Source: Thermoleophilia bacterium (GTDB lineage Bacteria; Actinomycetota; Thermoleophilia; BMS3ABIN01). Taken from it: a DNA stretch of 64,000 nucleotides. The translations under genes were made by a program, and so were the position numbers. Positions 481-49,564 of the stretch are shown here, piece by piece (within the stretch, counting starts at the first letter, position 1; each line of letters starts with the position of its first letter). The stretch is from contig JACUUL010000001.1 in assembly GCA_014859345.1 (NCBI GenBank), positions 2,720-66,719 on the forward strand. The letters are read 5' to 3'. A model generated the notes under the pieces. That model made no database searches. It saw only the letters and a program-made list of their open reading frames with translations, and was not told where the DNA came from.

Positions 481-1491
481 TTATATCCCGATCGCCTCGC
501 ATGCCTCCCCCAGCACTTCGGATGCGACTTTCTGGGCCCGCTGGCGGCCATCCTCCAGGATCGCCTCGATGCGACCAGGTTCGGTCATCAGCCGGCTCCG
601 TCTTTTCTGGATGGGTTCCAGCATGCCCACGACCCGGTCCGCCAGCCGACCCTTGCATTCGGTGCAGCCGATGGCGGCGGCGCGGCAGGCCCTGTCGATT
701 TCGTCAAGCTCCGCTGGCGGCGCCTCGAAAAAGCTGTGATAGGAAAAGACGTTGCAGGCTTCCGGATGGCCGGCGTCCCTGAGCGTCTTGCGGGCCGGAT
801 CGGTGTACATGGACATGACTTTTTTGCGCACGGTCTCGGCGTCGTCGGCCAGGTCGATGGTATTTCCGTAGGACTTGCTCATCTTGCGGCCGTCCAGCCC
901 CTGCAGGCGGGGCGTCTCGGTCAGTATCGCCCGGGGCTCCGGGAAGACCGGGCCGTAGAGCCCGTTGAAGCGGCGCACAATCTCACGGGCCAGCTCGAGG
1001 TGCGAAACCTGGTCCTCCCCCACCGGCACCCGGCCGGCCTTGTACAGGATGATGTCGGCGGTCTGCAGCACGGGATAGCCGAGGAAGCCGAAGGTGGCTA
1101 TGTGCTCGCCCAGCTCGCTGATCTGCTCCTTGTATGAAGGTACGCGGGTGAGCCAGGAGACCGGCACCAGCATGCCCAGCAGCAGGGCCAGCTCGCTATG
1201 CTCGCGAACGTCGGACTGCCGGAAGATGACGCTGCGCTCGGGGTCGATGCCCACCGCGATCCAGTCAGCCACCATCTCGACGCCATCGGCCTTCATGCCG
1301 GCGACATTATCGAAGCGGGTGGTGAGCGCATGCAGGTCGGCCACACAGTAGAAGCAGTCATAATCCTCCTGCAGCCTTACCCAGTTGGGTAGCGCCCCAA
1401 GAAGGTGGCCCAGATGCAGGCGGCCCGTGGGCCGCATTCCGGAAAAGACTCGCTCGCGCGGGGGAAGCCGGGGTTCCTTGGGTTCGGACAT
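481..1491 (-). CDS. trpS: Tryptophan--tRNA ligase (class I aaRS)
   Basis: 336 aa. N-terminal RPTGRLHLGHLLG (HIGH-type motif) and KMSKS near the C-terminus; size and motifs typical of TrpS. Confidence 0.88.
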   Translation of the reverse strand: MSEPKEPRLPPRERVFSGMRPTGRLHLGHLLGALPNWVRLQEDYDCFYCVADLHALTTRFDNVAGMKADGVEMVADWIAVGIDPERSVIFRQSDVREHSELALLLGMLVPVSWLTRVPSYKEQISELGEHIATFGFLGYPVLQTADIILYKAGRVPVGEDQVSHLELAREIVRRFNGLYGPVFPEPRAILTETPRLQGLDGRKMSKSYGNTIDLADDAETVRKKVMSMYTDPARKTLRDAGHPEACNVFSYHSFFEAPPAELDEIDRACRAAAIGCTECKGRLADRVVGMLEPIQKRRSRLMTEPGRIEAILEDGRQRAQKVASEVLGEACEAIGI

Positions 1492-1582: not shown

Positions 1583-1945
1583 TTATTCGAACTGGCTGAG
1601 CTGATCCTCGTCCATGCCGAAATAATGGCCCAGCTCGTGCATGACCGTTTTGAGCACCTGCTCCCGGATTTCCTCGTCGGTTCGGCAGATCTGCAAGATG
1701 GGAAGGCGGAAGATCGTGATGCGGTCTGGAAGGACGCCCGCGTAGCCGAAGTCGCGCTGCGTGAGTGGAATTCCCTCATAGAGGCCCAGCAGATGATACG
1801 GGTCCCCCTCATCCATCTCATCCATCTGGCCGGGCCCGGGAAGGTCGGCGACATGGATGGCCACGTTTTCCAGCGCCTGGAAAAACTTTTCCGGAAGCGC
1901 GGCCAGGGACTCGCCTACCAGCTGTTCAAATCGCGCCGGATCCAC
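1583..1945 (-). CDS. Small zinc metallopeptidase-like protein (MMP-like minimal metalloprotease domain, COG3824-type)
   Basis: 120 aa with HELGHYFGMDEDQL (HExxH zinc-binding motif) near the C-terminus. Confidence 0.45.
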   Translation of the reverse strand: MDPARFEQLVGESLAALPEKFFQALENVAIHVADLPGPGQMDEMDEGDPYHLLGLYEGIPLTQRDFGYAGVLPDRITIFRLPILQICRTDEEIREQVLKTVMHELGHYFGMDEDQLSQFE

Positions 1946-2017
1946 CGGGTTTCACTCCTTGTCAGATTTGAGCGGATGGTTCTCTCATCGGCCGCCGGAA
2001 AGAAAATCTGCAGCGCC

Positions 2018-2962
2018 TCAGGTCCAGTGCAGCACAGCATAGGCGGTGGCCGTCCACAATACCACATTTATCAGCAAAGGTACATCGGTAAGAAGCACCT
2101 GCTCCGGGGAGCCGCCCCGCTGGCGGCGGTGCAGAAGATACAGATACCGGAATAAGCCATAAAGCACAAACGGGATGGTCAGCATCATCCATTCAGAGTC
2201 CAGCGCCGTGAAGCTGTACAGGGAATAGGAAACCAGGCTGGCAGCGGCCGCCACCCCAATCATCTGGTCCAGGAGCGCGAGGCTGTAATGCTCGAGGATG
2301 CTGCGATGATTGGCCGACTCTCCTTCCAGCAGCGTCAGTTCCGCCCTTCTTTTCGCCAGAGCCAGGAAGAGGGCCAGGAGCAGCGTGCATAGTACCAGCC
2401 ACGGTGAAATATAGGCGTGTATGACCGCGCCTCCCGCGACGGCCCTGAGGACAAACCCCGCGGCTATGCCCAGCACATCGAGTATCATCAGATGCTTCAG
2501 CACAAACGTGTACAACAGTTGCAAGACAATGTAGAAGGCAAAGAAGAGGGACATCAAAGGCTCGATCGCCAGCCCGAAGCCCAGGGCCGCCGCAATCAAC
2601 AGGCCGGAAATGGCTACGGCAGTGGCCGCGTCCACCCGGCCGCTGGCGATGGGGCGGTCTTTCTTGACCGGGTGAAACCGGTCCCGCTCCCTGTCAAGAA
2701 CGTCATTTATCAGATAGCCGGCCGACACAACCGCGCAGAATCCGGCAAAGGCGGCCCAGACTGTCAGCTGCAGGTCCCAGTTAAAGACGTTCTGGGAAAA
2801 GATCAGCCCGGCGAAAACGACCAGGTTCTTGATCCACTGCTTCGGCCTGAGCGACACCAGGATGTCCCGGGCCAGTCCGGCCCGGCTCTTCCCGGCGCCG
2901 GCCAGAGGGCTGCCGCCGATCTCCCCGTCTGGAGCTATCCCCCGGCTGTCGAAATTATCCAT
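2018..2962 (-). CDS. UbiA-family prenyltransferase, decaprenyl-phosphate phosphoribosyltransferase (DPPR synthase, Rv3806c-like)
   Basis: 314 aa polytopic membrane protein. LRPKQWIKNLVVFAG and NDVLDRERDRFHPVKKDRPIASGRV (NDxxDxxxD...KxRP) match the Rv3806c-type UbiA family. Overlaps the upstream GT-C gene by 8 nt. Confidence 0.65.
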   Translation of the reverse strand: MDNFDSRGIAPDGEIGGSPLAGAGKSRAGLARDILVSLRPKQWIKNLVVFAGLIFSQNVFNWDLQLTVWAAFAGFCAVVSAGYLINDVLDRERDRFHPVKKDRPIASGRVDAATAVAISGLLIAAALGFGLAIEPLMSLFFAFYIVLQLLYTFVLKHLMILDVLGIAAGFVLRAVAGGAVIHAYISPWLVLCTLLLALFLALAKRRAELTLLEGESANHRSILEHYSLALLDQMIGVAAAASLVSYSLYSFTALDSEWMMLTIPFVLYGLFRYLYLLHRRQRGGSPEQVLLTDVPLLINVVLWTATAYAVLHWT

Positions 2963-4508
2963 CTTGGTAAGTCCATTGTCCCGTGCCCTGATCCAGCGCT
3001 CTTATGAGCCTCAGCAACCCGGTTTCGGAATCGTAGCTGAACAAATAGCCATCTCCCTCATCTCTGGCAGATTTGACTGAGCTGCCCAGATATATGACCT
3101 TCAGGTCGTCCCTGTCATAGGCGATGCGTATGGCCGGCTGCAGGCCGGTGATAAAAACATACGCGCCTCCCTGCCATTCAGGGACGCCCCTGAAATAGAT
3201 TTTAGCATTCTCATGAGGGTCGGGAAGCAGGGCCCGGGCCTGCAGGGGCAGGCTGTGGTTTATGGCGGCCGCCCTCTCCCAGGGCCTGTTATTGAAATTC
3301 ACTCCCACAAAATACACCGGCAGCAGGGCCAGCAGGGCTGCCGCCGCGCCTATCTGCCACTTGCGGTTTTTCCATCCGAACTCGAGCAGCCCCAGCGCTA
3401 CCAGTGACAGAACGGCCAGTGTGGGAAAATACAGCACACGAATTTCCCGGAGGCTGTGATTCACTCCCATCATAAAGAGCTGTGCATAAACAGGCGCAAT
3501 CGAGGCGCCGAGGAAAACTGCCATGAACAGCCACAGCCGTCTGATTCCCGCAGATGTGCGCTGCCAGCGCCAGAACACGACCAGAAGCGCCGACAGGCAC
3601 AACAAGCTGGTAAACGCCAGCAACGCATATATGGCCCCCATGGGAAACTCATGACTATTAAGCGGCGACAGGAGAGTAGTGATGGTGCGGGCGGCGGCGC
3701 CCGGATAGGGCCTGCCTATGACAGGCACATCCTGGTATCCGCCCAGGCGCCCCAGGCTGGCGTAGCGCACGGCGATATGGCCCATGAATATCACAAAAAA
3801 AATCGAAAGCCTCGCAAGCGGCCCGTACATGCGCGGCAGAAGCGAAGTCAGATCCGCCCGGACACTGTCGGCTTCCCGAGTTCTGTCCTCCGATGGAAAC
3901 CGGCGGCCATACAGCAATTCCATGGCCGGAACAAGCACAATCAGGACCATCGCTGTCTCTTTGCTGAAAAACGCTGCGACAGCCGCCAGCATGGCTCCTG
4001 CGAAGGCAAAGCGGTTCCCTGACCTGATGGTGACCCCGTAAAGGCACAGTGCCAGCAGGGTGAACATCAGAGCCAGAAGATCAAAGCGTCCAGACACCCA
4101 GGTAACCGTCTCCGGAGCCACCGGGCTGATTACGAACAGCGTCGCGGCAAGTCCCGCGGAAAGCCTGCGGGCTCCCCAAATCGTAAGGAACCAGAAGAGC
4201 AGATATGCTGTCGCCGCCTGCAACAGGGTATTGATCAGATGAGCGGGCCAGGCCGACATCCCGAAAACGTTATATTGAATCCACCACACAAACAGCGGTA
4301 CTGGCCTGACGAAGCTGGGCAACACCGTAAACAGCTGCCAGAGGCCGGTAACCTCCAGGGAGCCGGCCCTGCTTATGAAGGCGAAGTCATCGGCGATGAA
4401 CGTGTTGTTCATTACAGTCCAGTAGGCTGCCACAACCAGGCCAAAAAGGAAGGCAAACATTGATAGTCCGGACAAACCAGACTTTCTCGTCCATGACATA
4501 TCACTCAT
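2955..4508 (-). CDS. GT-C fold membrane glycosyltransferase (ArnT/PMT_2-like), paralog 1
   Basis: 517 aa, about 12 predicted TM helices, acidic DD motif in the first loop (FIADDFAF), C-terminal soluble domain. Clear similarity along its length to the upstream 514-aa paralog (AYWTVMNNTFIADDF vs AVYWPVLNNTLISDDH; DGYLFSYDSETGLLRLI vs DGYLIDYDQEQGLLRLV). Confidence 0.45.
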   Translation of the reverse strand: MSDMSWTRKSGLSGLSMFAFLFGLVVAAYWTVMNNTFIADDFAFISRAGSLEVTGLWQLFTVLPSFVRPVPLFVWWIQYNVFGMSAWPAHLINTLLQAATAYLLFWFLTIWGARRLSAGLAATLFVISPVAPETVTWVSGRFDLLALMFTLLALCLYGVTIRSGNRFAFAGAMLAAVAAFFSKETAMVLIVLVPAMELLYGRRFPSEDRTREADSVRADLTSLLPRMYGPLARLSIFFVIFMGHIAVRYASLGRLGGYQDVPVIGRPYPGAAARTITTLLSPLNSHEFPMGAIYALLAFTSLLCLSALLVVFWRWQRTSAGIRRLWLFMAVFLGASIAPVYAQLFMMGVNHSLREIRVLYFPTLAVLSLVALGLLEFGWKNRKWQIGAAAALLALLPVYFVGVNFNNRPWERAAAINHSLPLQARALLPDPHENAKIYFRGVPEWQGGAYVFITGLQPAIRIAYDRDDLKVIYLGSSVKSARDEGDGYLFSYDSETGLLRLIRALDQGTGQWTYQDG

Positions 4509-4555
4509 CGATGGCCCCTGTTGCGCTCAGAATTCTTGAACAAAGCGGCTCCATG

Positions 4556-6100
4556 TCAATTATCCTTGACCAATCTCAAAAGGCCCTGCTCCTGGTCATA
4601 ATCAATTAGGTAGCCATCAGTATCACTTTCAGGCAAAGGCTCATCGAAGTAATCCCCTGATGCCAGTCTCCTGACGCGGGTCACAATAATGTCGTCGCGG
4701 CCATACGCAGAATATAAAGCTTGCCGGAATCCAATCACGAAGACATAGCTGTCTTTCCAGGCAGGCACATGGATGAAGGTCATCCTGGCATTCTGCGGCG
4801 GATCAGGTATCAGCTCCACAGTCTGTTTTGGAATACTGTAATTCATTGCCGCTGCCCGCTGCCACGGACGGTTGTTGGCATGCAGTCCCGCTATATATAC
4901 CGGCAGCAAGACCGATAAGGCCAGGATTGCGAAAATCCGCCATGACCGTTTATGCCAGCCGAATTCCAGCATGCTGATAGCCAAGAGGGCCAGAACCGCA
5001 AGAGTCGGGGAATAAAGCAGGCGGCTCTCGCGAAGATTATTGGAAACGCCTGTCTGAGAAAGAACGGCATAACCGGGAAGAAGGGAACCGATTAAAAAGA
5101 TGATCATAAAGACAAGCATTTTTTTTGAATCGGCCGCGGCCCGGCGCCAGCGCAAAATGACAAGCGATCCACCGATGAGGAAAAGAGTGGCAGAGTAAAA
5201 ACCCAGGTAACGGATCAACCCCCATGACACCTCCGCGCTGTTTAGCGGCGATAGTGTTGTCTTTAAAGTGCTCAAGGCGTTTGCTCCCGGCAAAGCAAGC
5301 AACGGGAGGTCGCCATAACCGCCCATTCTCCCGAGAATCGCATAATGAAGCACAACGCTGGCGAACACGATCACGGAAAAAACAAACATCCTTGTCAGAA
5401 ATTTCCAATCAGAAAATTGAGCCCGGCTATTATTTATCAGCATTTTGGCAATATTGGCTTTCCTGCTGTCAATAGCGTAGGAGGATCTGTCCGCATAAAG
5501 AAGCTCCATGGCGGGCAACATCAGGACAAGCATGTATGCCTGTTCCTTGCTTAATAAGGCGGCCATGGCGGCCGCCATGGCCGTGCCGAAATAACCCCAG
5601 CTTTTCTTTTTGAGTGCGAAGAAATAAAGTCCGACAGTCAACAACGTGAAGAACAGCGCCATCAAATCATGCCGTCCAGACAGCCAGGTGGCCGCTTCCG
5701 GCGCGACTGGCGTCACTAAAAAAAGTACCGCAGCGGCAGTGGCCGTAAGACCGCGTGCCCCAAGCATTCGTAAAAGCCAAAACATAAGGCTGGCGACGCC
5801 CGCGTGCAGAAACACATTGATTAAATGCGCGGGCCAGGGATTAAAGTCAAAAAGGCGAAACTGGATCCAATAGGTCAGCCAGGTGAATGGCCGAACAGAG
5901 AAGTTTGACTGCAGAGTGAATAAGGAACCAAGCTCGGAGACTGGCAAGGAGCGCAACTCATAATAATAGAAGTGGTCATCGGAGATGAGAGTGTTGTTGA
6001 GCACTGGCCAGTACACCGCCACCGCCAGTCCGGCAAGAAGAATGAACAAGAAAAACAGTCCGCTCAGATTCTTTGATTTATTCTCTTTCCCCCCTTTCAC
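4556..6100 (-). CDS. GT-C fold membrane glycosyltransferase (ArnT/PMT_2-like), paralog 2 (lower GC)
   Basis: 514 aa, same architecture and conserved blocks as 2955..4508, but markedly lower GC (about 45% vs about 60%). Confidence 0.45.
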   Translation of the reverse strand: MKGGKENKSKNLSGLFFLFILLAGLAVAVYWPVLNNTLISDDHFYYYELRSLPVSELGSLFTLQSNFSVRPFTWLTYWIQFRLFDFNPWPAHLINVFLHAGVASLMFWLLRMLGARGLTATAAAVLFLVTPVAPEAATWLSGRHDLMALFFTLLTVGLYFFALKKKSWGYFGTAMAAAMAALLSKEQAYMLVLMLPAMELLYADRSSYAIDSRKANIAKMLINNSRAQFSDWKFLTRMFVFSVIVFASVVLHYAILGRMGGYGDLPLLALPGANALSTLKTTLSPLNSAEVSWGLIRYLGFYSATLFLIGGSLVILRWRRAAADSKKMLVFMIIFLIGSLLPGYAVLSQTGVSNNLRESRLLYSPTLAVLALLAISMLEFGWHKRSWRIFAILALSVLLPVYIAGLHANNRPWQRAAAMNYSIPKQTVELIPDPPQNARMTFIHVPAWKDSYVFVIGFRQALYSAYGRDDIIVTRVRRLASGDYFDEPLPESDTDGYLIDYDQEQGLLRLVKDN

Positions 6101-6406
6101 GATGCTTCCGGCTCCAATTGAAATGAATGGGAAAAAAAGTACCGAAAATTATCAGCCAGCGGCTGTATTTTGTTCTTCGGGCTAACAAAACGCAGTTCCA
6201 TTGACAGGAAAGCACTGCAGCCATTTAAAACGAAAGACGCGGCCGCTATGAAATGAACCGTGCTGCCTAACGAGCGTCCAAAGTATTTTGAAAGGAAGAA
6301 CCGGGGAAATGCGGTTAAGGGGATGACGATGCCCCTGACGAAATTCATGGGATATGCAGGTGTGATGCTTCCCCACCTCCAAGGAAACAAACGGCTTTGA
6401 GAGGTT

Positions 6407-6440
6407 TTATTGTAGTATAAATATGGTTAAAGAGAAATGG
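6407..6440. promoter_or_regulatory. Copy A of a conserved about 34-nt intergenic motif (ATTGTAGTATAAAT...GAGAAATGGG)
   Basis: Exact 11-mer ATTGTAGTATA and GAGAAATGGG block are shared with 8065..8098. Both copies lie 30-60 nt 3' of a minus-strand stop codon. Confidence 0.3.
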
Positions 6441-6473
6441 GATGACCGGGTTTGTCCGGGAAGGGCTGTCTAA

Positions 6474-7925
6474 TTAAGGATGCCTCGGAATTTCTCTTTT
6501 TTTAAGCCAAAAATTTCGATTGAACAGGACAGTCCAGATGCGTTTGAGGATTACCTTGAGCTGATAAAGAGTCTTTATTTCCCTGGCCATCCCCCAGATC
6601 ACCCGTGGCCTGACATAAAATCCGATGACTGCTTTCCTGACGAATTTCTCAAGGACCCGGGAGTCAATTTCAGACACAAAAGGAATGATCTGGTAATACA
6701 AGAATTTGTTCCAGTCAAAATCTTCCGCCGGGACTTTTTTCCTCCAGTCTGAATAAATTTCAGTTCCGGGCAAGGGCATGACAGGAGAAAAGCTTGCCTT
6801 GTTCAGCTTCAGCCTTCTGGAAAATCTTATGGTCTTCTTAATCTCCTCCACTGTCTCCCCGGGATATCCCAGAAGAAAAAAGCCGGTCACGTTTAAATTG
6901 GACGAATTTTTAATAAGATCCACCTTCTCTTCAATCTGGTCCGTCGTGAGTTTCTTTCTCATCCTCCTGAGGACATCGTCGGATCCCGATTCAATCCCGA
7001 CAGCAACCGAATAGCACCCCGAGTCTTCCATGGCTTCAAGCATCTCCGCGTCGATGCGGTCAAGCCTGATTCCGTTCGGGCAGGCCCATGGCATTCTTAA
7101 ATTCCTTCGCTTCACAAGCGATGTGAACTCCATGACGTAATCCTTCTTCATCGTGAAGTTGTCATCTTCGATATGGAATTCCTTGATTCCATAATTTCTG
7201 ACCAGATACTCGATTTCATCAACGACATCCTCTGCCGGCCTGTACCTGATTTTTCTGCCGAACACCTTAAACGCGGCGCAGAAGGTGCACGGATAGGGAC
7301 AACCCCGGGAAGTCAACACCGGAGCGACCGGATATCCGCGCGAAAAGGTGCCGTGAGGAGATATGGGATATGTCCTGGGATCGATGAGGTCCCAGGCGGG
7401 GCGGGGAAGCGTGGCAAGATCTTCCGACTGAGCTATCTCGTTTATGCAGACTTCACCTTCATTAACCGGGTAAGCCACGTTCTTTATGCCGGCAAGCCTG
7501 GTTTTGTCATCAAGATCGCCCTTGTCGAGCTTCATCAGTTCCACGATGGCCTCTTCTCCTTCGCCGACCACCGCGCAATCAACGTCCGGTAATATCGAAA
7601 ACGTCTGCTCTACATCTCCCGATGGATGGGGGCCGCCCAGAACCAGGATGGCCTCCTCGTTCAAAGCCCGGGCAACATGGACCATCCGCCTGGCGGACGG
7701 GATGCCGCTGGTATAAACCTGAAAGCCGATAAGATGGAATTCCTTTCCCGACAGATATCCCCTGAAATCCTCAGGGCCGATATCTTCCTTGTTGCAATCG
7801 AGAATCACCGCGTCCAGCCCGCTTTCCCGAAGCGAGGCGGCGAGATAGCCGAGACCCAGGTTAGGCATGACGCTATAGGTGTAAACGTCTTTTGGTTTTA
7901 TCAATAAGGCTTTTCTTTGTTCCAT
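6474..7925 (-). CDS. B12-binding radical SAM protein (class B radical SAM)
   Basis: 483 aa. N-terminal cobalamin-binding (Rossmann-like) domain, then CPYPCTFC (CxxxCxxC radical SAM cluster motif). Lower GC than the surrounding genome. Confidence 0.8.
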   Translation of the reverse strand: MEQRKALLIKPKDVYTYSVMPNLGLGYLAASLRESGLDAVILDCNKEDIGPEDFRGYLSGKEFHLIGFQVYTSGIPSARRMVHVARALNEEAILVLGGPHPSGDVEQTFSILPDVDCAVVGEGEEAIVELMKLDKGDLDDKTRLAGIKNVAYPVNEGEVCINEIAQSEDLATLPRPAWDLIDPRTYPISPHGTFSRGYPVAPVLTSRGCPYPCTFCAAFKVFGRKIRYRPAEDVVDEIEYLVRNYGIKEFHIEDDNFTMKKDYVMEFTSLVKRRNLRMPWACPNGIRLDRIDAEMLEAMEDSGCYSVAVGIESGSDDVLRRMRKKLTTDQIEEKVDLIKNSSNLNVTGFFLLGYPGETVEEIKKTIRFSRRLKLNKASFSPVMPLPGTEIYSDWRKKVPAEDFDWNKFLYYQIIPFVSEIDSRVLEKFVRKAVIGFYVRPRVIWGMAREIKTLYQLKVILKRIWTVLFNRNFWLKKREIPRHP

Positions 7926-8739: not shown

Positions 8740-10851
8740 ATGGCAGAGATTAAAATCAAGGAGATTCGCGCCCGCAATGGCCGCCTCCTGGCCTTTGACG
8801 CCGGGCGGATCGAGCGAGCGATCGCCAGGGCCGTGGCGGCAGCGGGTGAGAGTGATGGCGAGGTATCGCGAGAGCTGGCCCAGCAGGTTATTGACCGGCT
8901 CGATCAGAAATATGCCGGCGGGACCCCCACTGTCGAGGAGATACAGGACATGGTGGAAACCGTGCTGATGGAGACGGGTCACGCCGAGACAGCCCGTGCC
9001 TACATCACCTACCGCCGGCGCCATGCCGACCTCCGGGCCGCCAAGCGCTTTCTGGGCGTAAAGGATGACCTGAAGCTGCCGATCAACTCGCTGACCGTCC
9101 TGAAAAAGAGATATCTCGTCAAGGACGAAAAGGGCGAGGTGGTAGAGACGCCGCGGGAGATGTTCAATCGGGTGGCCGGCCACATCGCGGCGCCAGACGC
9201 CGCCTACGGCGACGATGCGGCCGCCTCGGAAGAGGCCTTTTTCCGGATCATGGCCAGCCGCGAATTCCTGCCCAACTCCCCCACCCTGATGAACGCCGGC
9301 ACGGAGCTGGGGCTGCTCTCGGCCTGTTTTGTCCTGCCGGTGCCAGACTCGATCCCCGGCATCTTCGATTCCATAAAATACATGGCCATAATCCACCAGG
9401 CCGGCGGCGGCACAGGGTTTTCCTTCTCCAACCTGAGGCCCAAGGGAGACATCGTGGGCACCACTCACGGCATCGCCTCCGGGCCCGTCAGTTTCATGAG
9501 CGCCTTTGACGGGGCCACCGAGGTCATAAAACAGGGCGGGCGGCGCCGGGGGGCAAATATGGGCGTGCTGAGAGCGGACCACCCCGACATCCTTGAGTTC
9601 ATCACGGCCAAGCAGCGGGAGGACTTCCTGGTGAATTTCAATGTTTCGGTGGCAGCCACGGACGCCTTCATGCGGGCGGTCCGCGATGACGGCGAGTTCG
9701 ACCTGATTAACCCGCGCAACGGCGAAGTCACCGGCAGTTTAAAGGCGCGCCCGGTGATGGAGGCCATTTCCTCGGCTGCCTGGCGCACCGGAGACCCGGG
9801 AATGATCTTCCTGGACCGCATCAACGAGGCGAATCCCACTCCACAACTGGGCCCCATGGAGACGACCAATCCCTGTGGCGAACAGCCGCTGCTGCCCTAT
9901 GAGTCCTGCAACCTTGGGTCGATCGACCTGGCCAGGCTGGTCAAAAACAGCAGCATGGACTGGAAGCGGCTGGGCGGGCTTATCGACATCTCGGTTCATT
10001 TTCTGGATAACGTCATCGACGCCAACCGCTTTCCCCTTGCCGAGATCACCGAGATGACCAACGGCAACCGCAAGATCGGCCTGGGAGTCATGGGCTTTGC
10101 CGAAGCGCTGATCAAGTTGGGCATCCGCTATGACTCCGAGGAGGGGCTGGCAACCGGCGAGAAGATCATGAAATTCATCTCTGAGAGAAGCATCGCCAAA
10201 TCGCGGGAGATCGCCCGCCGGCGCGGCTCCTTCCCGAACTTCGAGGGCAGCCTGTGGCAGCAGCGGGGCCTGAGCGAGATGCGCAATTCCACAGTGACCA
10301 CCGTGGCGCCGACCGGCACGATCAGCGTCATCGCCGGCACCAGCAGCGGCATCGAGCCGCTTTTCGCGATCTCTTTCGTGCGGGATGTGATGGAGGGCAC
10401 CCGACTGCTGGAGGTCAATCCGGAGTTCAAGCGGGTGGCCATCGAACGCGGCTTCTACAGCGACGATCTGATGATGCGAATCGCCAAAACCGGCAGCGTC
10501 CAGGATGTGGAGCAAATCCCTGAGGATGTCAGGAACCTCTTCCGGACCGCTCATGACATCATGCCGGAATGGCATGTGCGCATGCAGGCGGCCTTCCAGA
10601 AGCATGTGGACAATGCAGTTTCCAAGACGATAAACCTGCCCCGGGAAGCCGGAATCGACGAGGTCCGCAAGGCGTACCTGCTTGCCTACGACCTGGGCTG
10701 CAAGGGGATCACGGTCTTCCGTTACGGCAGCAAGAAACAGCAGGTTCTGTACCTGACCGGGGACATCATGGGAAACGGCGCCGAAGCCGAGCATCTGCGC
10801 GCCGCCCCGGAGTTTGCCGGAGGATGCCCCACCATCGACTGCGAGTTTTAG
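8740..10851 (+). CDS. nrdJ: Ribonucleoside-diphosphate reductase, adenosylcobalamin-dependent (class II)
   Basis: 703 aa. N-terminal ATP-cone, catalytic NPCGEQPLLPYESCNLGSIDL block, C-terminal Cys pair (CPTIDCEF). No nrdB/nrdG partner nearby. Sits in a genome segment rich in B12 biosynthesis genes. Confidence 0.75.
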   Translation: MAEIKIKEIRARNGRLLAFDAGRIERAIARAVAAAGESDGEVSRELAQQVIDRLDQKYAGGTPTVEEIQDMVETVLMETGHAETARAYITYRRRHADLRAAKRFLGVKDDLKLPINSLTVLKKRYLVKDEKGEVVETPREMFNRVAGHIAAPDAAYGDDAAASEEAFFRIMASREFLPNSPTLMNAGTELGLLSACFVLPVPDSIPGIFDSIKYMAIIHQAGGGTGFSFSNLRPKGDIVGTTHGIASGPVSFMSAFDGATEVIKQGGRRRGANMGVLRADHPDILEFITAKQREDFLVNFNVSVAATDAFMRAVRDDGEFDLINPRNGEVTGSLKARPVMEAISSAAWRTGDPGMIFLDRINEANPTPQLGPMETTNPCGEQPLLPYESCNLGSIDLARLVKNSSMDWKRLGGLIDISVHFLDNVIDANRFPLAEITEMTNGNRKIGLGVMGFAEALIKLGIRYDSEEGLATGEKIMKFISERSIAKSREIARRRGSFPNFEGSLWQQRGLSEMRNSTVTTVAPTGTISVIAGTSSGIEPLFAISFVRDVMEGTRLLEVNPEFKRVAIERGFYSDDLMMRIAKTGSVQDVEQIPEDVRNLFRTAHDIMPEWHVRMQAAFQKHVDNAVSKTINLPREAGIDEVRKAYLLAYDLGCKGITVFRYGSKKQQVLYLTGDIMGNGAEAEHLRAAPEFAGGCPTIDCEF

Positions 10852-11268
10852 GAAATCTATCCCTAAAATCCGCTCCTCAATGCCGGGTCTGGATGATTTT
10901 AAGGGTAATGCCCTCTCCTTTGTTCTTCCCCCCGTCAATGTTAAAAGCTCTGCCCCTGCGTGAAAATTTCCTCAATTTGCAGGCATATCATCGCTCCTGG
11001 AATCGTCACGTACTCTTTAAATACGACCACTTTGGTCAAAAAAGTTATAGCAATAATAAAAATAGGGGTTTTCCCCGATAGCCAGGCGCCCGCGCCCGCG
11101 ATATGCTCTCAGCACGTAGTTTTAGTCCTACCTTTTTAGGAGCGAGGCACCTGACCGCGCCCGGCGACGGACAATTTTCTCGAAGCGCCGGGTTGGGGAG
11201 GCTTTGAGGACAAGGGGCTGGCGGATAACGACGGCTGTTTGGTTCGATAAATCGATTCCAGCAAGGAG

Positions 11269-23050: not shown

Positions 23051-23389
23051 TCACCTTTCCAGCTCCAGGATTTCTTGCATGAACTCGATATGGGCGTCTT
23101 TCGGCAGGCGAAATCCGGCCTCCGCCTCCAGCGCCATCAATATCCCGGCCGGGACCGGACAGGACACGTGCTTTAAATGCCTGTCCGCGGCCCGGTAAAC
23201 CGGATTTTCCATGAACCTGACGAAGGCGTCCATACGGTTCAGCTCTTTAATGTCGCCGGCCATGCGGGTCACGTGCTCGCAGTCGCTCTTCATTTCAACG
23301 CTGTATGGCTCATTTTTGCCGCCGTTTCGTATGCGTACCCAGGTGATGAAACCGCAGGCCCCAGAGGTTATCCTGACGGAGGTGGTCAC
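23051..23389 (-). CDS. Hypothetical 112-aa protein, translationally coupled between RACE and HdrE-like genes
   Basis: 4-nt overlap with the RACE stop and a 3-nt gap to the HdrE-like start. Contains 4 Cys and 6 His. No known family recognised. Confidence 0.3.
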   Translation of the reverse strand: MTTSVRITSGACGFITWVRIRNGGKNEPYSVEMKSDCEHVTRMAGDIKELNRMDAFVRFMENPVYRAADRHLKHVSCPVPAGILMALEAEAGFRLPKDAHIEFMQEILELER

Positions 23390-25362
23390 CCTTTTACCGG
23401 CACGGCCGAGCCGGATTCCTCAAGCATTTTCTTTACATGAGGAAATTTGTCTTTCATGTGGGGTATATGCATGGCCTGTATGAACTCTTTCTCGAATTCC
23501 GGCTCCACTGCTATTTCCAAGTACTCGAGTTCTCTGGCCTGCTTCCTGGCCTCCAGCCGCTTGGTCCTGCTCAAAAGGGCCATTATGGCTCCATCGCCTG
23601 CGGCATTGCCCACCGCGTAAACCTTCTCCGGATCGCAATCAGGAAACATCCCCAGTGTCATCGCGGATTTCTTGTGTATGTAACTTCCAAAGGCCCCGGC
23701 CAGTATGACCTTTTCCACTTTCGCTATGCCCATTTTTTTCATCATCAGCTTGGCGCCGGTGTAAAGGGCCGCCTTGGCCAGCTGCAGCGCCCGGACGTCC
23801 GCCTGCGCGATGGTAATGTCTGTGCCAATAGATGTTTCCTTCGCCCAGGCCAGGACATATTCGAGTTTCCCGTCATGGTCCCGGCGAACTCTCTCCGTAT
23901 CCAGATCCTTGGCCATTCTTCCGGATTTGTCTATTATGCCTGCCTTGAACATCTCCGCCACTACATCGATTATCCCGGAGCCGCATATGCCCTTTGCCTC
24001 TATGTCGCCCTTGATTTCGGTATGCCATTCCTCTTTGCCAATTACTTTATACACGGGCTCCCTGGTCTGCGGGTCGATCTTCACTTTCTCTATGGCGCCG
24101 GGGGCGGCCCTCATGCCGAATTTTATCTGGGCTCCCTCAAATGCCGGACCCGTGGCGCAGGAAGTCGAGGAGAGATGTTCCTTGTTTCCGAGCAGGAGCT
24201 CGCCGTTCGTGCCAATGTCGATAATCAGAACCTTCTCTTTCATCCGGTACGGCTCCTCAGCAATGAGGACGCCCACGTTGTCCGCGCCCACGAAACCCGC
24301 CTCGATCGGCAGGACATGAACATAGGACGCATGGTTAATCCCTATATCCATATCCCGGGCCTTGATGTTAAGGTCGTTCTGCACCGCCGGGATGAAAGGC
24401 GCCAGGCCGATATACACCGGATTAAGGCCCAGGAATATATGGTGCATGGCTGTATTGAAGACTATTGTCATGTCCACTATCGACTGGCCGCCGGGCTTCG
24501 CGTCCATTTCGTAATTCGCTGTCAGCCTGCCGATCAGGTCGTTCAGGCCGTCTATCAAGGCCTTCTGCATGGTCTCGAGCCCGCCCTCGGTCATCATGGC
24601 GTAGGTGATCCGGGACATCACGTCCTCGCCGTAAGGAACCTGGGGATTCATCATCGACTCGGTTCTGACCACCTCGCCGGTTGTCAGCTCGCATAGGTAC
24701 GCGGCCACGGTAGTGGTCCCCACGTCCACCGCCAGCCCCAGGGAGGATTCCACGAAACCCGGTTCCACTTTCACTATCTCGGAATCCATCCATATGGAGA
24801 CTGTAATTTTCCAATCACCTTCCCTGATGACGTCCTGCAGGCCAGTAAGCACGGCATAGTCCATCGAGAGGCCCGTGAGGCCGTATTCCGCCTCGATCTC
24901 GGCTTTCAGCCTTTCCAGGTCACCCACGATAGTTTTTTCCAGAGTGGGTTTCTCCAGCTCCACGAAGTATTTCCTTACCGCCGGCTCAATAGGCACGGTC
25001 ACCTTCCGGGCCGTCTTTCTGACTATCTGCTTTCCGGCACGGGATTTCTCGGGAACGAAGAGCTTGACGTCTCCATGGAGCTCGGCGGCGCAGGCGAGCC
25101 TGATATTCTCACCGTCGGCGGGTTTTATGAACTTCTTTTCCCCATCCGTAATGGGACTCAGATTTGTCATCCGGGAATCAATATTGTCTTTCTCGAAATA
25201 ACCTTCATCCACCCGGACCTTGCATTTGCCGCAGGTTCCCTTGCCTCCGCATATGGATTCGAGATCCACTCCCAGTTGCTGCGCGGCCTCGATCAGGCTT
25301 TTTCCCTCTTCCACTTCGCCGCGCCGGCCCGAGGGCTGAAAAATTACCTTATGCTTGCGCAT
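23386..25362 (-). CDS. RACE-type reductive activator of corrinoid enzymes (2Fe-2S ferredoxin plus ASKHA ATPase domain; RamA/RACo-like)
   Basis: 658 aa. N-terminal plant-type ferredoxin (CGGKGTCGKCKV) followed by a large ASKHA/DUF4445-type ATPase domain. Confidence 0.8.
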   Translation of the reverse strand: MRKHKVIFQPSGRRGEVEEGKSLIEAAQQLGVDLESICGGKGTCGKCKVRVDEGYFEKDNIDSRMTNLSPITDGEKKFIKPADGENIRLACAAELHGDVKLFVPEKSRAGKQIVRKTARKVTVPIEPAVRKYFVELEKPTLEKTIVGDLERLKAEIEAEYGLTGLSMDYAVLTGLQDVIREGDWKITVSIWMDSEIVKVEPGFVESSLGLAVDVGTTTVAAYLCELTTGEVVRTESMMNPQVPYGEDVMSRITYAMMTEGGLETMQKALIDGLNDLIGRLTANYEMDAKPGGQSIVDMTIVFNTAMHHIFLGLNPVYIGLAPFIPAVQNDLNIKARDMDIGINHASYVHVLPIEAGFVGADNVGVLIAEEPYRMKEKVLIIDIGTNGELLLGNKEHLSSTSCATGPAFEGAQIKFGMRAAPGAIEKVKIDPQTREPVYKVIGKEEWHTEIKGDIEAKGICGSGIIDVVAEMFKAGIIDKSGRMAKDLDTERVRRDHDGKLEYVLAWAKETSIGTDITIAQADVRALQLAKAALYTGAKLMMKKMGIAKVEKVILAGAFGSYIHKKSAMTLGMFPDCDPEKVYAVGNAAGDGAIMALLSRTKRLEARKQARELEYLEIAVEPEFEKEFIQAMHIPHMKDKFPHVKKMLEESGSAVPVKG

Positions 25363-25582
25363 CTCTCTTCCTCCATGAAGTTTCGGATATCCCTTTAATC
25401 ACTGTTGCCGTAATCATCATCCTGAGGGATAAATGAGGGGACGGTTACCCCCGACTGCCGGATTACCGGCCGTCCTGTAACCGAAGCAGATGGTAAAAAT
25501 GCGGGGCAAACTTACCGACCGTCCCCCAATCGCGCCAATGGGGAGGTGGCGATATCCGATGTCACGTTTAACTCTGTTTCCT

Positions 25583-26266
25583 CTATTCGGCCTCTGCCTC
25601 TTGTTTAAGCCTTTTGAGAGAGCTGACCATGTCTATGGCGTCCTTGAGCGCGTTGCTGGCGTCGGCCGCGTATCCGTCTGCGCCCCACTTGTCGGCTATG
25701 TCCTGTGACGCCGGGGCGCCGCCTATCATTATTATACAATCTGGGTTCTTCTCCTTGAGATCATGGATAACCTTCTCCATGCCCGACATGGTCGTCGTCA
25801 TCATGGCGGACAGGCAAACAAGATCCGAATCCGTCCGGAGCTGCTCTTCAACGAACTTGTCGAGGGGCACGTCCCTGCCCAGGTCATAGACCGTGAAGCC
25901 GGCCACGTCGAACATCATCTTGACTATGTTTTTGCCGATATCGTGGACGTCTCCTTCCACCGTGCCGATTACCACCGACCCCCTGACACCCAGATCCAGC
26001 TGTTCGACATGGGGCCTGAGAATATCCAGCCCGGCATACAGGGCATCCGCGCACATCAGCAGCTCGGGGACGAAATATTCCTCCTCCTCGAAAAGCCTGC
26101 CGACTTCCTCCATGCCGGTCACCAGTCCGTCGAATATCGCGTCATTGGCCTTGAGGCCCTCGTCCAGCGCTATCTGCGCCCACTCCCTGGCTGTGTCCTC
26201 GTCGTACTCGATAACGGCGTTTTTGAGATTTTCCAGTATTTCCTGTTTCCGTTCTTCCGTAGCCAT
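25583..26266 (-). CDS. Corrinoid (cobalamin-binding) protein, MtaC/MtbC-like
   Basis: 227 aa. B12-binding DxHxxG motif (GDVHDIGKNIV) and N-terminal helical cap domain. Confidence 0.8.
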   Translation of the reverse strand: MATEERKQEILENLKNAVIEYDEDTAREWAQIALDEGLKANDAIFDGLVTGMEEVGRLFEEEEYFVPELLMCADALYAGLDILRPHVEQLDLGVRGSVVIGTVEGDVHDIGKNIVKMMFDVAGFTVYDLGRDVPLDKFVEEQLRTDSDLVCLSAMMTTTMSGMEKVIHDLKEKNPDCIIMIGGAPASQDIADKWGADGYAADASNALKDAIDMVSSLKRLKQEAEAE

Positions 26267-26270
26267 TAGC

Positions 26271-27320
26271 TCACCTCGCGTAGTTTCTAACCGCGTCCAT
26301 CATCGCCTCGAAGTTCCGGGGCGGAACCGTGGGCCATATATCACAGCCCGGCCACACGGCGCTGACCCCGTCGTCCAGGCATTTATTTATCGTTTGCTCC
26401 ACCAGTTCCGGAGTGCCGGATACCAAAACGTTGAACGGGTCGTAATTTCCGAATACCAGGGCATCGGGACCAAGCTCCTCCCTGGTCTTGATTATTTCGT
26501 TTCTCTGGTCCACGCTGATCGCATCGGCCCCGGCTTCCACCATGGCGCCGACTATCGGGTTTGTCTTGCCGCAGATATGGTTTACGCTGGGCACCGTGAT
26601 TTCAGCAAATATCTTCTTCAGGTTGGGCAGAATCAGTTTCTTGAAGATCCGGGGGCTAAGCACATCCGAAGTCGCCCCCATCTCCCTGACGGTAAGGTAG
26701 TCGATGCCCGCTTTTTCGTACCGCTTTAGCACCGCTATGATGACATCAGCCAGCTTGTCGAGCAGCGCCTCCACCTTGTCGGGCTTCTTGAATGAGAGCT
26801 TGAGGAGGTCGTTGAGCTCCATAATCTGTCCTGCCAGGGTAAACGGGCCCAGCACATAGCTCCCGACCGGCACCTCACCCTTGAGTTCCTCCTTGGCCAG
26901 CCCTATCGCTTCGCACACAAGGGGAACCCGGCCCTTCTCGGCCACATCGGCCGGCATGGAGAGATCCATTTCATCTTCGCTATGGATGACCTTCTCCTTG
27001 ATCGTGGGGTAAAACAGGTCCTCCGTGTGGGCATAGGTGTTTATCTCGCATCCGATGGCCTCGGCCTCGACGCAAAGATCAAACGGCACCACGGCGCAGT
27101 CGAACCCGAAGAGTTTCGGAGTGGAAACGGCCGCTTCGGCCATCTGCCGGCTATCCAGGTGCACTTCAGCGAACTTGTAGCCCAGCTTCTCGAGTCCGGC
27201 GGTGGTCACGTTGCCCAGGCCGCTGAAGCAGGCCGGCCTGTCCGTCTTCTCGCCAGCAAACACGCTGGCGACCCTTTCTTTGGCGGTCATCGTCTTAAGC
27301 TCCTGTTCTTTCCTGTTCAT
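26271..27320 (-). CDS. MtaA/CmuA-family (UroD-fold) zinc methyltransferase 1
   Basis: 349 aa. UroD-family N-terminus, zinc ligand motif VNHICGKT and downstream PGCDIWP, as in methylcobamide:thiol methyltransferases. Confidence 0.75.
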   Translation of the reverse strand: MNRKEQELKTMTAKERVASVFAGEKTDRPACFSGLGNVTTAGLEKLGYKFAEVHLDSRQMAEAAVSTPKLFGFDCAVVPFDLCVEAEAIGCEINTYAHTEDLFYPTIKEKVIHSEDEMDLSMPADVAEKGRVPLVCEAIGLAKEELKGEVPVGSYVLGPFTLAGQIMELNDLLKLSFKKPDKVEALLDKLADVIIAVLKRYEKAGIDYLTVREMGATSDVLSPRIFKKLILPNLKKIFAEITVPSVNHICGKTNPIVGAMVEAGADAISVDQRNEIIKTREELGPDALVFGNYDPFNVLVSGTPELVEQTINKCLDDGVSAVWPGCDIWPTVPPRNFEAMMDAVRNYAR

Positions 27321-27326
27321 GTTTTT

Positions 27327-28289: not shown

Positions 28290-28350
28290 CACCTCTCCTT
28301 GGATATTCTCAGGCCGGCGGAGGGAATTCCCTCCGCCGGTCTTTTTTGCC

Positions 28351-28950: not shown

Positions 28951-28989
28951 CCAGCAGCTTTTCCCCTAAGTCATCGCACCTCCTCCCAC

Positions 28990-35848: not shown

Positions 35849-35954
35849 TTTGCATACCTTTCGCGGTTTTATCGTGCGGATCGTGCCCGGTCAAACATCG
35901 CCTGCTGAAGAAAGCAGCCAGGATATTCGAAGGGAAAGAAATTATAGTACACTC

Positions 35955-36665: not shown

Positions 36666-36740
36666 ATACGGCCTCCATCATAAATCAAGGGTCAACATAA
36701 TATGGGTCGCCGTGCTCATTTGTGGTGTTTTTTGATTGTC

Positions 36741-38030: not shown

Positions 38031-38079
38031 GCCTTGCCAAATCTGTTTTTCAAGCTTTCAGTCATTCGGTATTACGTGC

Positions 38080-39183: not shown

Positions 39184-39217
39184 TTCCAAGGCGATCTTCA
39201 GTCTGCCGTCCGCGTTT

Positions 39218-45625: not shown

Positions 45626-45704
45626 TCAAACTCCATCGTCGGCAGCAGTTTTCCGGAAACCTTCCGCGGTGGAAAGAAAGCGATCTTCCCGACCGTCCGG
45701 ACGT

Positions 45705-47287: not shown

Positions 47288-47390
47288 TACCGGCGCCCCT
47301 TTAAAACCTGCTCCCGCCCGCCCTCAGCAGTCTGCCACGGACGACGGCTGTCTTTCGGGAGATTGGGGCGGCTCACGCGCCAGGCAGCGT

Positions 47391-48950: not shown

Positions 48951-49012
48951 GCCTCAGGCCCTTTCCGGAAACCCGGGCACGGGAGCCGGCGTTTCTCTGT
49001 CCACGATTCTGA

Positions 49013-49549: not shown

Positions 49550-49564
49550 GCCGTCCTCAAGACG

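Follow-up and report, generated by a model that had tools for sequence, protein, structure and literature searches.

A UbiA-family gene that follows two tandem GT-C glycosyltransferase genes raises the question of whether the three act together in glycosylation of the cell envelope, and if so, with which sugar. The original prediction, made for a 64-kb stretch of DNA (hereafter the window), read them as an arabinan-like, lipid-linked pentose pathway in a Firmicutes-like genome, outside Actinobacteria. We favor, with a probability of roughly 0.55, the reading that the three genes are the core of a module for the extracytoplasmic addition of a pentofuranose to a surface glycan. The locus appears to be one more instance, incomplete within this stretch, of a surface-sugar decoration system already known to be widespread in bacteria, and not an arabinan pathway outside Actinobacteria.

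Host and gene layout

Proteins identical to those of the window come from a deposited MAG that bears the name Thermoleophilia bacterium (Actinomycetota), the sample being a Kerch mud-volcano metagenome. The closest homologs occur in MAGs of Thermoleophilia or Actinomycetes and in BMS3Abin01, the namesake of a GTDB order in Thermoleophilia, Actinomycetota, and the G+C content of the window is 59.6%. The host is an uncultured, anaerobic mud-volcano member of Thermoleophilia (Actinomycetota), and the placement in a Firmicutes-like genome was mistaken.

All four predicted genes were confirmed in place, all on the minus strand (Table 1). Coupling within the window rests on this shared strand and on an 8-nt overlap (ATGGATAA) between the stop codon of GT-C B and the ATG of the UbiA homolog. 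The proposed translational coupling holds for that junction but not for the two GT-C genes, which stand 47 nt apart (95 nt if the start chosen in the Logan gene call is used), a gap that contains a promoter-like site in a consensus scan, although these scans were uninformative. The 373-nt leader of GT-C A has a G+C content of 0.46 and weak promoter and terminator consensus matches, and a search of it for a riboswitch or other RNA returned no Rfam family at E ≤ 1. GC3 is uneven along the operon (0.76 for the UbiA homolog, 0.68 for GT-C B, and 0.59 for GT-C A), which suggests that the genes were assembled in stages.

The original prediction also mentioned a metallopeptidase-like neighbor. This Zincin_1 gene starts 72 nt after the UbiA stop codon with its own AAGGAG ribosome-binding site, and no homolog was found in the other UbiA or GT-C loci retrieved up to that point; it has no conserved link to the system and is probably a co-directional neighbor that does not belong to it. 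The upstream B12-radical-SAM gene has one moderate homolog, ∼7 kb from a PPPRS homolog (see below) in locus L041, and only distant generic homologs, ∼4 to 6 kb upstream, in Clostridium loci. Given the locus comparison, both genes were treated as neighbors and rejected as traveling components of the system.

Table 1. Features of the locus, in coordinates of the 64-kb window
Feature	Position	Strand	Basis or remark
GT-C glycosyltransferase A (514 aa)	4556..6100	-	by sequence, uncharacterized PMT_2/TMTC-like family
GT-C glycosyltransferase B (517 aa), paralog of A	2955..4508	-	PMT_2 18.7 bits; 44% identity to A
PPPRS / DPPR-synthase homolog, UbiA superfamily (314 aa)	2018..2962	-	NF008977, NF008978, PF01040, PDB 8J8J
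Zincin_1 (PF06262) small metallopeptidase-like gene (120 aa)	1583..1945	-	PF06262 113 bits
D41-D42 codons of GT-C A, putative catalytic acidic pair, first extracytoplasmic loop	5975..5980	-	alignments, model
D40-D41 codons of GT-C B, counterpart of the DD pair of A	4386..4391	-	alignments
Motif NDVLDRERDRFHPVKKDRP, UbiA homolog residues 86-104, cytoplasmic loop 1	2651..2707	-	Mg2+-binding N/D, pyrophosphate-binding K/R
373-nt intergenic region 5' of GT-C A	6101..6473	-	presumed to hold the promoter and to begin the transcription unit

The UbiA homolog and the GT-C pair

The UbiA homolog scored 276.1 bits against NF008977 (cut-off 234) and 222 bits against NF008978 (cut-off 207), NCBIfam models with equivalog cut-offs that are both named decaprenyl-phosphate phosphoribosyltransferase, and 94.7 bits against PF01040. 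Other UbiA-type models (heme o synthase, UbiA, ChlG, GGGP synthase, and others) gave 20 to 59 bits against cut-offs of 180 to 353. In a sequence search of the PDB, residues 28 to 310 matched 8J8J (Rv3806c) with E 8.6e-36, and the next family matches reached only E 9e-4; identity to Rv3806c is 32.7% over 281 aligned residues. Rv3806c binds Mg2+ through N73 and D77 of its NDxxD motif and phosphoribose and pyrophosphate through K28, Y70, Q135, and Y157 together with R22, K87, R90, K143, and Y138, and the phosphoribose-binding residues are not kept in ordinary UbiA prenyltransferases (PMC10994848). Identical in the window protein are R22, K28, Y70, N73, D77, K87, R90, Q135, Y138, and K143 (Rv3806c numbering); N73 and D77 correspond to its N86 and D90, and the other kept binding residues are its R39, K45, Y83, K100, R103, Q148, Y151, and K156. 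The sole substitution among the compared binding residues, F170 in place of Y157, also occurs in some mycobacteria (PMC10994848). In the motif NDVLDRERDRFHPVKKDRP, labeled Rv3806c-type in the original prediction, both the N/D residues and the K/R residues (K100 for K87 and R103 for R90) match.

The NCBIfam scores, the 8J8J match, and the binding residues agree with the original prediction that the protein is of the DPPR-synthase type and not a MenA, UbiA, or chlorophyll synthase, and we strongly predict that it acts as a polyprenyl-phosphate 5-phosphoribosyltransferase (PPPRS). The protein is a bare UbiA domain without a fused HAD phosphatase domain and is closer to a widespread non-mycobacterial clade (41 to 68% identity) than to Rv3806c. 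Standard annotation already names it correctly. The rarity that the original prediction implied does not hold: PPPRS homologs are very widespread in other phyla, at least 556 relatives occur in one-genome-per-species contigs, cultured Clostridium species among them, and the logic of PPPRS plus GT-C was published as widespread in 2024 (PMC11127046).

The two GT-C proteins are 44% identical over 509 aa (E 4e-127). GT-C A scored 25.7 bits against PMT_2, and like its paralog falls below the cut-off of 26.1; neither protein matched Pfam PMT or PMT_4TMC at E ≤ 0.01, and the NCBI annotation name, GT39 protein O-mannosyltransferase, was rejected on these grounds. Because neither matched any PDB chain by sequence at E ≤ 1, the fold was established through a predicted model. 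A protein was to count as GT-C if its membrane domain has 7 to 13 TM, with TM1 followed by an extracytoplasmic loop, and if its structure is similar to those of solved GT-C enzymes. The model is confident, has a polytopic membrane domain with an extracytoplasmic loop after TM1, and resembles solved GT-C enzymes, which account for all of its significant fold matches. As far as a predicted structure can, this settles the GT-C fold of the window proteins, for which the sequence alone gives a weaker call.

In the model of GT-C A, D41-D42 directly follow TM1 (helix 8-29). This DD pair is invariant in an eight-sequence family alignment, and in a larger alignment of 40 sequences, TPR-bearing relatives among them, D42 never varies and D41 is at least 90% conserved. 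Judged by topology, the pair is the putative equivalent of the catalytic Asp of solved GT-Cs. Alignment A1 has 72 family-invariant positions, including DD, R70-P71, H92, K185-E186, and R360, and both copies carry all of them; neither ORF is disrupted, and each has the length usual in the family. The fear that the GT-Cs might be non-catalytic for want of conserved acidic loop residues is eased, as both keep DD after TM1.

Membership in Emb GT53, AftA GT85, AftB GT89, AftC GT87, or AftD was rejected, as no Pfam or NCBIfam model of these matched the GT-Cs; a phmmer comparison with solved Emb, AftA, AftB, and AftD chains returned nothing at E ≤ 1. The predicted fold scores better against PMT and STT3 than against Aft or Emb, and its likeness to the latter is that of GT-C enzymes in general. 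Outside the family, the closest relatives by sequence are TMTC-like GT-Cs that bear TPRs, and the window proteins carry a family-specific 85-residue C-terminal domain and no TPR or MIR domain. A family size of eight members, from a word-indexed search, was discarded, as exhaustive HMMER searching gives ∼37 full-length cluster representatives; at E ≤ 1e-10 the family grades into ∼28,000 PMT_2/TMTC-like proteins. By sequence comparison, the GT-Cs are a small uncharacterized PMT_2/TMTC-like family and not Emb/Aft enzymes.

Genomic context and competing readings

In a locus of a second MAG (L095), a PPPRS 61% identical to that of the window lies two genes from a GT-C of the same family (634 bits), a linkage of the same two families that supports a real coupling of PPPRS and GT-C. 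The cluster also contains Wzy_C, two GT4 genes, a polysaccharide deacetylase, a carbamoyltransferase, a GT87-like gene, and a PMT_2-like GT-C, and has three GT-C-type genes, one of them the GT87-like gene. Across phyla, a large polytopic membrane protein lies directly beside the PPPRS homolog in 27 of 68 species-representative loci; in a Peptococcaceae MAG a PMT_2 GT-C adjoins it, and in Clostridium the conserved module joins PPPRS to an 8-9-TM protein and a small transporter of the SMR/EamA-like kind. Compared with the GT-C profile, the Clostridium neighbors of PPPRS gave only a weak match (49% probability), and those of the Bacteroidota homologs showed no similarity. Genes for other members of the GT-C family are accompanied by GT4, GT2, Wzy_C, Polysacc_synt, and ABC-2 genes in clusters for surface polysaccharide, with three paralogs in one cluster (L004) and two in another (L005). 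The GT2 genes of such clusters were compared with GtrB/DPM1-like polyprenyl-P-hexose synthases, a match to which would have pointed to a hexose donor; they showed only generic GT2 similarity and no pair of TM at the C terminus. No PPPRS was detected within 10 kb at six GT-C family loci (L002, L004, L005, L090, L093, and L094), which are most of those inspected. In the closest PPPRS clade (60 to 68% identity), five of the seven other inspected loci have the housekeeping arrangement RecN-UbiA-DUF362-LPG_synthase_TM and no GT-C.

We detected neither a DprE1-type (FAD_binding_4/ALO) nor a DprE2-type (short-chain dehydrogenase) gene among ORFs of at least 200 aa across the 64 kb, and L095 likewise has none. 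Pfam searches of the window found no 5'-phosphatase (HAD or PAP2) and no flippase (MATE, SMR, or GtrA-like), nor does a small ORF with 3-4 TM lie close to the operon. With no phosphatase, flippase, or epimerase gene found in the 64 kb, the module is incomplete locally; the phosphatase and flippase may be encoded elsewhere. As no epimerase is nearby, the default sugar is ribofuranose, and arabinofuranose or xylofuranose would require an epimerase encoded elsewhere in the genome. The arabinan-like part of the original prediction is unsupported on this count and because the GT-Cs are not of the Emb/Aft type. Its general logic, glycosylation with a lipid-linked pentose on the outer side of the membrane, is the reading that we consider best.

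The proposed route begins on the cytoplasmic face, where the UbiA-family enzyme is strongly predicted from its sequence to move 5-phosphoribose from PRPP to polyprenyl phosphate. A phosphatase would then strip the 5'-phosphate and a flippase take polyprenyl-P-ribofuranose to the outer face, steps for which no gene was found in the window. There the GT-C pair, through the Asp-Asp of loop 1, would put the pentofuranose on a cell-surface polysaccharide or other envelope glycoconjugate, both donor and acceptor being putative. Since the two GT-Cs are paralogous, they probably differ in the linkage that each forms or in the acceptor position that each serves.

Three other readings bear on this route. 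The adjacency may be incidental, which is possible, though on balance unlikely: the GT-Cs would use a polyprenyl-phosphate hexose (mannose or glucose) from a GT2 elsewhere and modify surface polysaccharide or, like PMTs, secreted proteins, and PPPRS would feed a separate pathway, which seems to be its role in sister genomes. The TMTC-like nearest relatives, the six GT-C loci lacking PPPRS, and the five closest-clade PPPRS loci that share a different neighborhood lacking GT-C are consistent with such independence, as is the heterogeneous GC3 of the operon. The 8-nt overlap argues for coupling, however, as do the independent linkage of the two families in L095 and the repeated position of PPPRS beside polytopic membrane proteins across phyla, and PMT (GT39)-like chemistry fits poorly with proteins that score below the PMT_2 cut-off and match no PMT model.

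A true DPA-type pathway, in which DprE1/DprE2-like epimerization would yield polyprenyl-P-arabinofuranose and the two GT-Cs would build an arabinan-like polymer, is quite improbable. Neither the window nor L095 has a DprE1/DprE2-type gene by the search above, the GT-Cs have no Emb/Aft sequence match and a fold nearer PMT and STT3, and the PPPRS is nearer the non-mycobacterial clade than Rv3806c; what speaks for it is an actinobacterial host, in a phylum from which DPA-dependent arabinan is known, and the plurality of GT-Cs typical of arabinan assembly, in this operon and in the three GT-C-type genes of L095. It is very improbable that one or both GT-C copies are non-catalytic, as decaying duplicates or accessory subunits, so that only one enzyme acts: the 44% identity of tandem paralogs and the atypical composition of GT-C A would be compatible with decay, but both ORFs are intact with all 72 invariant positions, DD included, and several paralogs per cluster are normal in the family, as in L004 and L005.

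Significance and comparison with known systems

If the coupling of PPPRS and GT-C is real, it would provide a likely donor, polyprenyl-P-ribofuranose or an epimer, for a GT-C family in the surface-polysaccharide loci of uncultured bacteria and would extend the three-component pentofuranosylation concept of 2024 to anaerobic, deep-branching Actinomycetota. Knowledge of Rv3806c-type enzymes is unchanged, and no arabinan pathway outside Actinobacteria is revealed. More speculatively, and in our estimate decidedly unlikely, deep-branching anaerobic Thermoleophilia of the BMS3ABIN01 type would make an envelope glycan from polyprenyl-P-pentofuranose donors with several GT-Cs of a previously uncharacterized family, an evolutionary cousin of mycobacterial arabinan assembly. 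Were this true, lipid-linked pentofuranose glycosylation of the envelope would be ancestral in Actinomycetota and not an innovation of Mycobacteriales, and the GT-C family would be a new CAZy family of pentofuranosyltransferases.

The experimental precedent is Citrobacter youngae O1/O2, which encodes PPPRS (ORF15), a MATE flippase (ORF14), and a GT-C (ORF12, CAZy GT136) (Kelly et al., PNAS 2024, PMC11127046). PPPRS, flippase, and GT-C together are a common bacterial route for pentofuranose addition outside the cytoplasm, and further gram-positive examples, some with several GT-Cs, have been predicted (PMC11127046). As in C. youngae, an Rv3806c-type PPPRS gene lies beside GT-C genes in the window, and again in L095, and the predicted logic is the same, from PRPP through polyprenyl-P-Ribf to outer-face transfer to a surface glycan. 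Unlike the three-component system, the window has no detected gene for a flippase, 5'-phosphatase, or epimerase in its 64 kb, its PPPRS has no fused HAD domain, and it carries two tandem GT-C paralogs of a PMT_2/TMTC-like family.

The mycobacterial DPA/arabinan set consists of the UbiA protein Rv3806c, the phosphatase Rv3807c, DprE1/DprE2, Rv3789, EmbA/B/C, and AftA-D. The window shares with it a homologous first committed enzyme (32.7% identity in a full-length alignment), several GT-Cs downstream in the pathway, and a host phylum, Actinomycetota. It differs in that no DprE1/DprE2, PAP2 phosphatase, or GtrA/SMR flippase was found in the 64 kb, in GT-Cs that by sequence are not GT53, GT85, GT87, or GT89, and in belonging to an anaerobic Thermoleophilia-type MAG, not to Mycobacteriales, with Ribf and not Araf as the default sugar.

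D-Araf glycosylation of group IV pilin in Pseudomonas aeruginosa employs a PPPRS homolog, DprE1/E2 homologs, and the GT-C TfpW (PMC11127046; bioRxiv 10.1101/2020.04.19.049825). There, too, in a bacterium outside the mycolata, a GT-C shares a gene cluster with a PPPRS homolog, but the epimerase pair and the pilin target of that cluster have no counterpart in the context of the window. Finally, unlike PMT (GT39) or TMTC-like O-mannosyltransferases, the GT-Cs described here end in a domain of their own family in place of TPR or MIR domains, and their genomic partner is a phosphoribosyltransferase rather than a polyprenyl-P-mannose synthase.

Gene arrangement and host genome

Five co-directional genes on the minus strand of the window encode a B12-binding radical SAM protein, two tandem membrane glycosyltransferases (GT-C A and GT-C B), a UbiA-family protein and a Zincin_1 protein, their identities upheld by Pfam and NCBIfam (see table), and the predicted gene arrangement was confirmed. 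GT-C A and GT-C B are spaced by 47 nt, the GT-C B stop overlaps the UbiA ATG by 8 nt, and the Zincin_1 gene starts 72 nt past the UbiA homolog with its own AAGGAG. Neither a Logan gene call nor any other support was found for a 97-aa TTG-initiated ORF whose end reaches 4 nt into the start codon region of GT-C A, and it is unlikely to be a gene.

Coordinates of features in the window and at homologous loci
Feature	Location	Strand	Remarks
Tryptophanyl-tRNA synthetase (TrpRS)	481-1491		next after Zincin_1 gene
Zincin_1 gene	1583-1945	-	
UbiA-family gene	2018-2962	-	314 aa
GT-C B	2955-4508	-	517 aa
GT-C A	4556-6100	-	514 aa
97-aa ORF	6097-6390	-	
Spacer	6101-6473		373 nt, 46% G+C
B12-binding radical SAM gene	6474-7925	-	
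Corrinoid-dependent methyltransferase set	23386-30018	-	
Cobalamin biosynthesis and cobalt transport cluster	31660-49812	-	
Cobalamin riboswitch	49643-49812		60.1 bits
IspD, GluRS, CysRS, sigma factor	57554-63609		syntenic with L002:1669-7829
Linked GT-C and phosphoribosyltransferase	L095:1-11689		GCA_021790115.1, JAJYIM010000036.1
GT-C paralogs in polysaccharide clusters	L004:3171-13095; L005:10001-14268		
Closest-clade phosphoribosyltransferases	L007, L008, L009, L010: ~10001-10860; L098: 8001-8861		
Tandem membrane proteins, Bacteroidota/Kapaibacterium	L073:10873-14140; L074:6244-9466; L080:10862-14147		
67%-identical phosphoribosyltransferase	L099:849-5304		

The outer genes of the row were considered separately. 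The Zincin_1 gene, of which none of the other loci fetched carries a homolog and which stands ahead of TrpRS-ScpA-ScpB, was treated as unrelated to the glycosylation trio. The B12-binding radical SAM gene is set off from GT-C A by the spacer, which has no Rfam match; a single moderate homolog lies ~7 kb from a phosphoribosyltransferase homolog (L041), and distant generic homologs are found upstream in Clostridium loci. GC3 is 0.59-0.60 in GT-C A and the radical SAM gene and 0.76-0.83 in the UbiA, TrpRS and ribonucleotide reductase genes, and the segment 4556-7925 may have been acquired more recently.

The original prediction placed the locus in a Firmicutes-like genome outside Actinobacteria, a placement that is unsupported because identical UbiA-family and GT-C A proteins were deposited from an NCBI metagenome-assembled genome (MAG) named Thermoleophilia bacterium, the nearest UbiA-family homologs (60-68% identity) are from Thermoleophilia or Actinomycetes MAGs and bacterium BMS3Abin01, the G+C of the window is 59.6%, and the gene content is of anaerobe type. 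The Thermoleophilia label is taken from the deposited MAG name and these closest homologs; within Thermoleophilia (Actinomycetota), BMS3ABIN01 designates an uncultured order and family (PMC13503563). The same locus is present in the Logan assembly of SRR11917416, a Kerch Peninsula mud volcano metagenome (PMC7565565). Corrinoid methyltransferase components, an anaerobic-type cobalamin pathway, class II ribonucleotide reductase and class I aldolase are encoded elsewhere in the window, and this content fits an anaerobe.

The methyltransferase set comprises a RACo-type reductive activase, a B12-binding protein, two URO-D/MtaA-like methyltransferases and an MtrH-like methyltransferase, which indicates anaerobic methyl-group metabolism. 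The large anaerobic-type cobalamin cluster, preceded by a cobalamin riboswitch, includes CobS, CbiJ, a CbiG-CbiH-like fusion, CbiF/L-type methylases, CbiD, CbiMQO, a CbiX-CbiC fusion, CobB/CobQ, CobD and CobA/CobO. At its right end the window shares synteny with the stretch upstream of P0127, the sole member of the GT-C family in GCA_027371445.1 (L002), which adjoins an Amidase_3 gene and not a phosphoribosyltransferase.

A predicted phosphoribosyltransferase and two GT-C enzymes

Two NCBIfam equivalog models for decaprenyl-phosphate phosphoribosyltransferase matched the UbiA homolog above their curated cut-offs (276.1 versus 234 and 222 versus 207), with all remaining UbiA-type models far under threshold. 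Among all PDB sequences the sole strong match of the UbiA homolog was M. tuberculosis Rv3806c (8J8J; E 8.6e-36, residues 28-310; 32.7% identity over 281 residues), the next-best family reaching only E 9e-4. Rv3806c binds Mg2+ through N73 and D77, phosphoribose through K28, Y70, Q135 and Y157, and pyrophosphate through R22, K87, R90, K143 and Y138, and its phosphoribose sites are not kept in ordinary UbiA prenyltransferases (PMC10994848). In the alignment, 10 of these 11 positions are identical in the UbiA homolog, as are the other two motif aspartates (D74 and D81); the exception is Y157, which is Phe, a substitution seen in some mycobacteria (PMC10994848). The motif originally cited spans residues 86-104. 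Model scores, PDB match and residue identities thus set the protein apart from MenA, UbiA and chlorophyll synthases, and it is predicted to be a polyprenyl-phosphate 5-phosphoribosyltransferase (PPPRS) of the DPPR-synthase type, as proposed.

GT-C A and GT-C B are paralogs (44% identity) that barely touch the Pfam PMT_2 model and match no PDB sequence. A confident structure model of GT-C A built from a 40-sequence alignment (pLDDT 88.3, pTM 0.91) comprises ~11 TM helices and a ~85-residue C-terminal domain; the predicted fold is generic GT-C, nearest the PMT type and not specifically of the mycobacterial arabinosyltransferase type. No loss of acidic loop residues was found: the DD pair immediately following TM1 is invariant across the family, as are R70-P71, H92, K185-E186 and R360, and D42 and K185 remain invariant once TPR-bearing relatives join the alignment. 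A word-indexed search of 5.8 billion proteins found only eight family members; exhaustive HMMER gave ~37 cluster representatives matching full-length, the family merging gradually into a very large PMT_2/TMTC-like superfamily. We assign the two proteins to a small, uncharacterised family of GT-C enzymes, and the enzyme assignments of the original prediction were right. Several paralogs per polysaccharide cluster are typical of this family (three in L004/L094, two in L005), with GT4, GT2, methyltransferase, DUF2079 and GMC-oxidoreductase genes as neighbors in L004 and L005.

Proposed coupling of the enzymes and the probable donor sugar

Functional coupling of the GT-Cs to PPPRS is favored by the overlap of GT-C B with the PPPRS gene and by a second, independent linkage in a MAG (L095), where a member of the same GT-C family (634 bits) is found two genes away from a PPPRS 61% identical to that of the window, in the order Wzy_C, GT4, GT-C, GT4, PPPRS, polysaccharide deacetylase, carbamoyltransferase, GT87-like and PMT_2-like, so that one PPPRS is surrounded by three GT-C-type enzymes. 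Against coupling, PPPRS is absent within 10 kb of the GT-C family at six other loci, which lie beside an amidase or within polysaccharide clusters and often hold two or three paralogs, and at five loci the closest PPPRS clade shares a different conserved neighborhood (polyprenyl synthase, DXS, TlyA/FtsJ, NAD kinase, RecN, PPPRS, DUF362 and LPG_synthase_TM), with a GT-C in none. GC3 also counts against it, falling from PPPRS (0.76) to GT-C B (0.68) and GT-C A (0.59), with housekeeping genes at 0.81-0.83, which suggests that the operon was put together stepwise. On balance, we put the odds that the coupling is real at a little better than even.

In the closest clade, whose PPPRS is 60-68% identical and comes from Thermoleophilia-type MAGs and from BMS3Abin01, the block is strictly conserved; its MprF-like LPG_synthase_TM protein is a candidate for the missing flippase, and DUF362 for an accessory. 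At L099, PPPRS has an ABC-2 transporter permease on one side and, on the other, a convergent 1193-aa protein that carries Amidase_2, LGFP repeats and SpoIID and weakly matches Rv3811_N; LGFP/Rv3811-type cell-wall proteins are encoded near ubiA in mycobacteria.

The original prediction called the glycosylation arabinan-like. This is unsupported because no DprE1- or DprE2-type gene was detected in a scan of the ORFs of at least 200 aa within the 64 kb, and PPPRS lacking an epimerase would, by published logic, imply a ribofuranose donor; L095 likewise has no epimerase. The same scan detected no PAP2 or HAD phosphatase and no MATE transporter, and there is no small SMR/GtrA-like membrane ORF near the operon. 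With phosphatase and flippase missing, the module is incomplete within the window. It is best classed as a new example, incomplete at this locus, of the known three-component pentofuranosylation systems, with GT-Cs of an uncharacterised family; the most useful outcome is a testable donor hypothesis for this GT-C family.

PPPRS across phyla and the published system

Rv3806c-type genes are abundant far beyond Actinobacteria: a homolog search gave at least 8,000 candidates, and with each species represented by a single genome at least 556 relatives were confirmed. The 80 best-scoring of these (41-64% identity) include cultured Clostridium species and Peptococcaceae, deltaproteobacterial, Chloroflexota, WOR-3, Bacteroidota, Myxococcota and Armatimonadota genomes. 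In 27 of 68 such loci the immediate neighbor of PPPRS is a large polytopic membrane protein, and in 36 such a protein lies within three genes; in a Peptococcaceae MAG the adjoining protein is a PMT_2 GT-C. The conserved Clostridium module consists of PPPRS, an 8-9-TM protein with a weak match to the GT-C profile at the DD loop, an SMR/EamA-like protein of 118 aa and an aminotransferase.

Twelve loci of Clostridium and relatives (L026, L031, L036, L037, L039, L046, L049, L050, L053, L057, L077 and L082) share the order RecA, RNase Y, PPPRS, a 415-437-aa 6-9-TM protein that has no Pfam match, and an SMR/EamA-like protein of 118-124 aa, with the aminotransferase ending the module in loci reaching that far; the exception is L026, where the SMR/EamA-like protein is 131 aa and set apart by an intervening opposite-strand gene. 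These loci look like a complete three-component system of cultured Clostridia in a housekeeping context. Three Bacteroidota/Kapaibacterium MAGs have a tandem pair of 9-10-TM proteins (519-580 aa) after PPPRS; these match no Pfam family, and similarity to the GT-C profile could not be detected.

Kelly et al. (PNAS 2024) described a system that attaches alpha-linked pentofuranoses to glycans outside the cytoplasm by means of a polyprenyl phosphoribose synthase, a flippase and a GT-C, the choice of Ribf, Xylf or Araf being set by auxiliary epimerases, and reported gram-positive candidates, some with several GT-Cs (PMC11127046). The occurrence of PPPRS beside membrane proteins across phyla follows the pattern of that system (PMC11127046).
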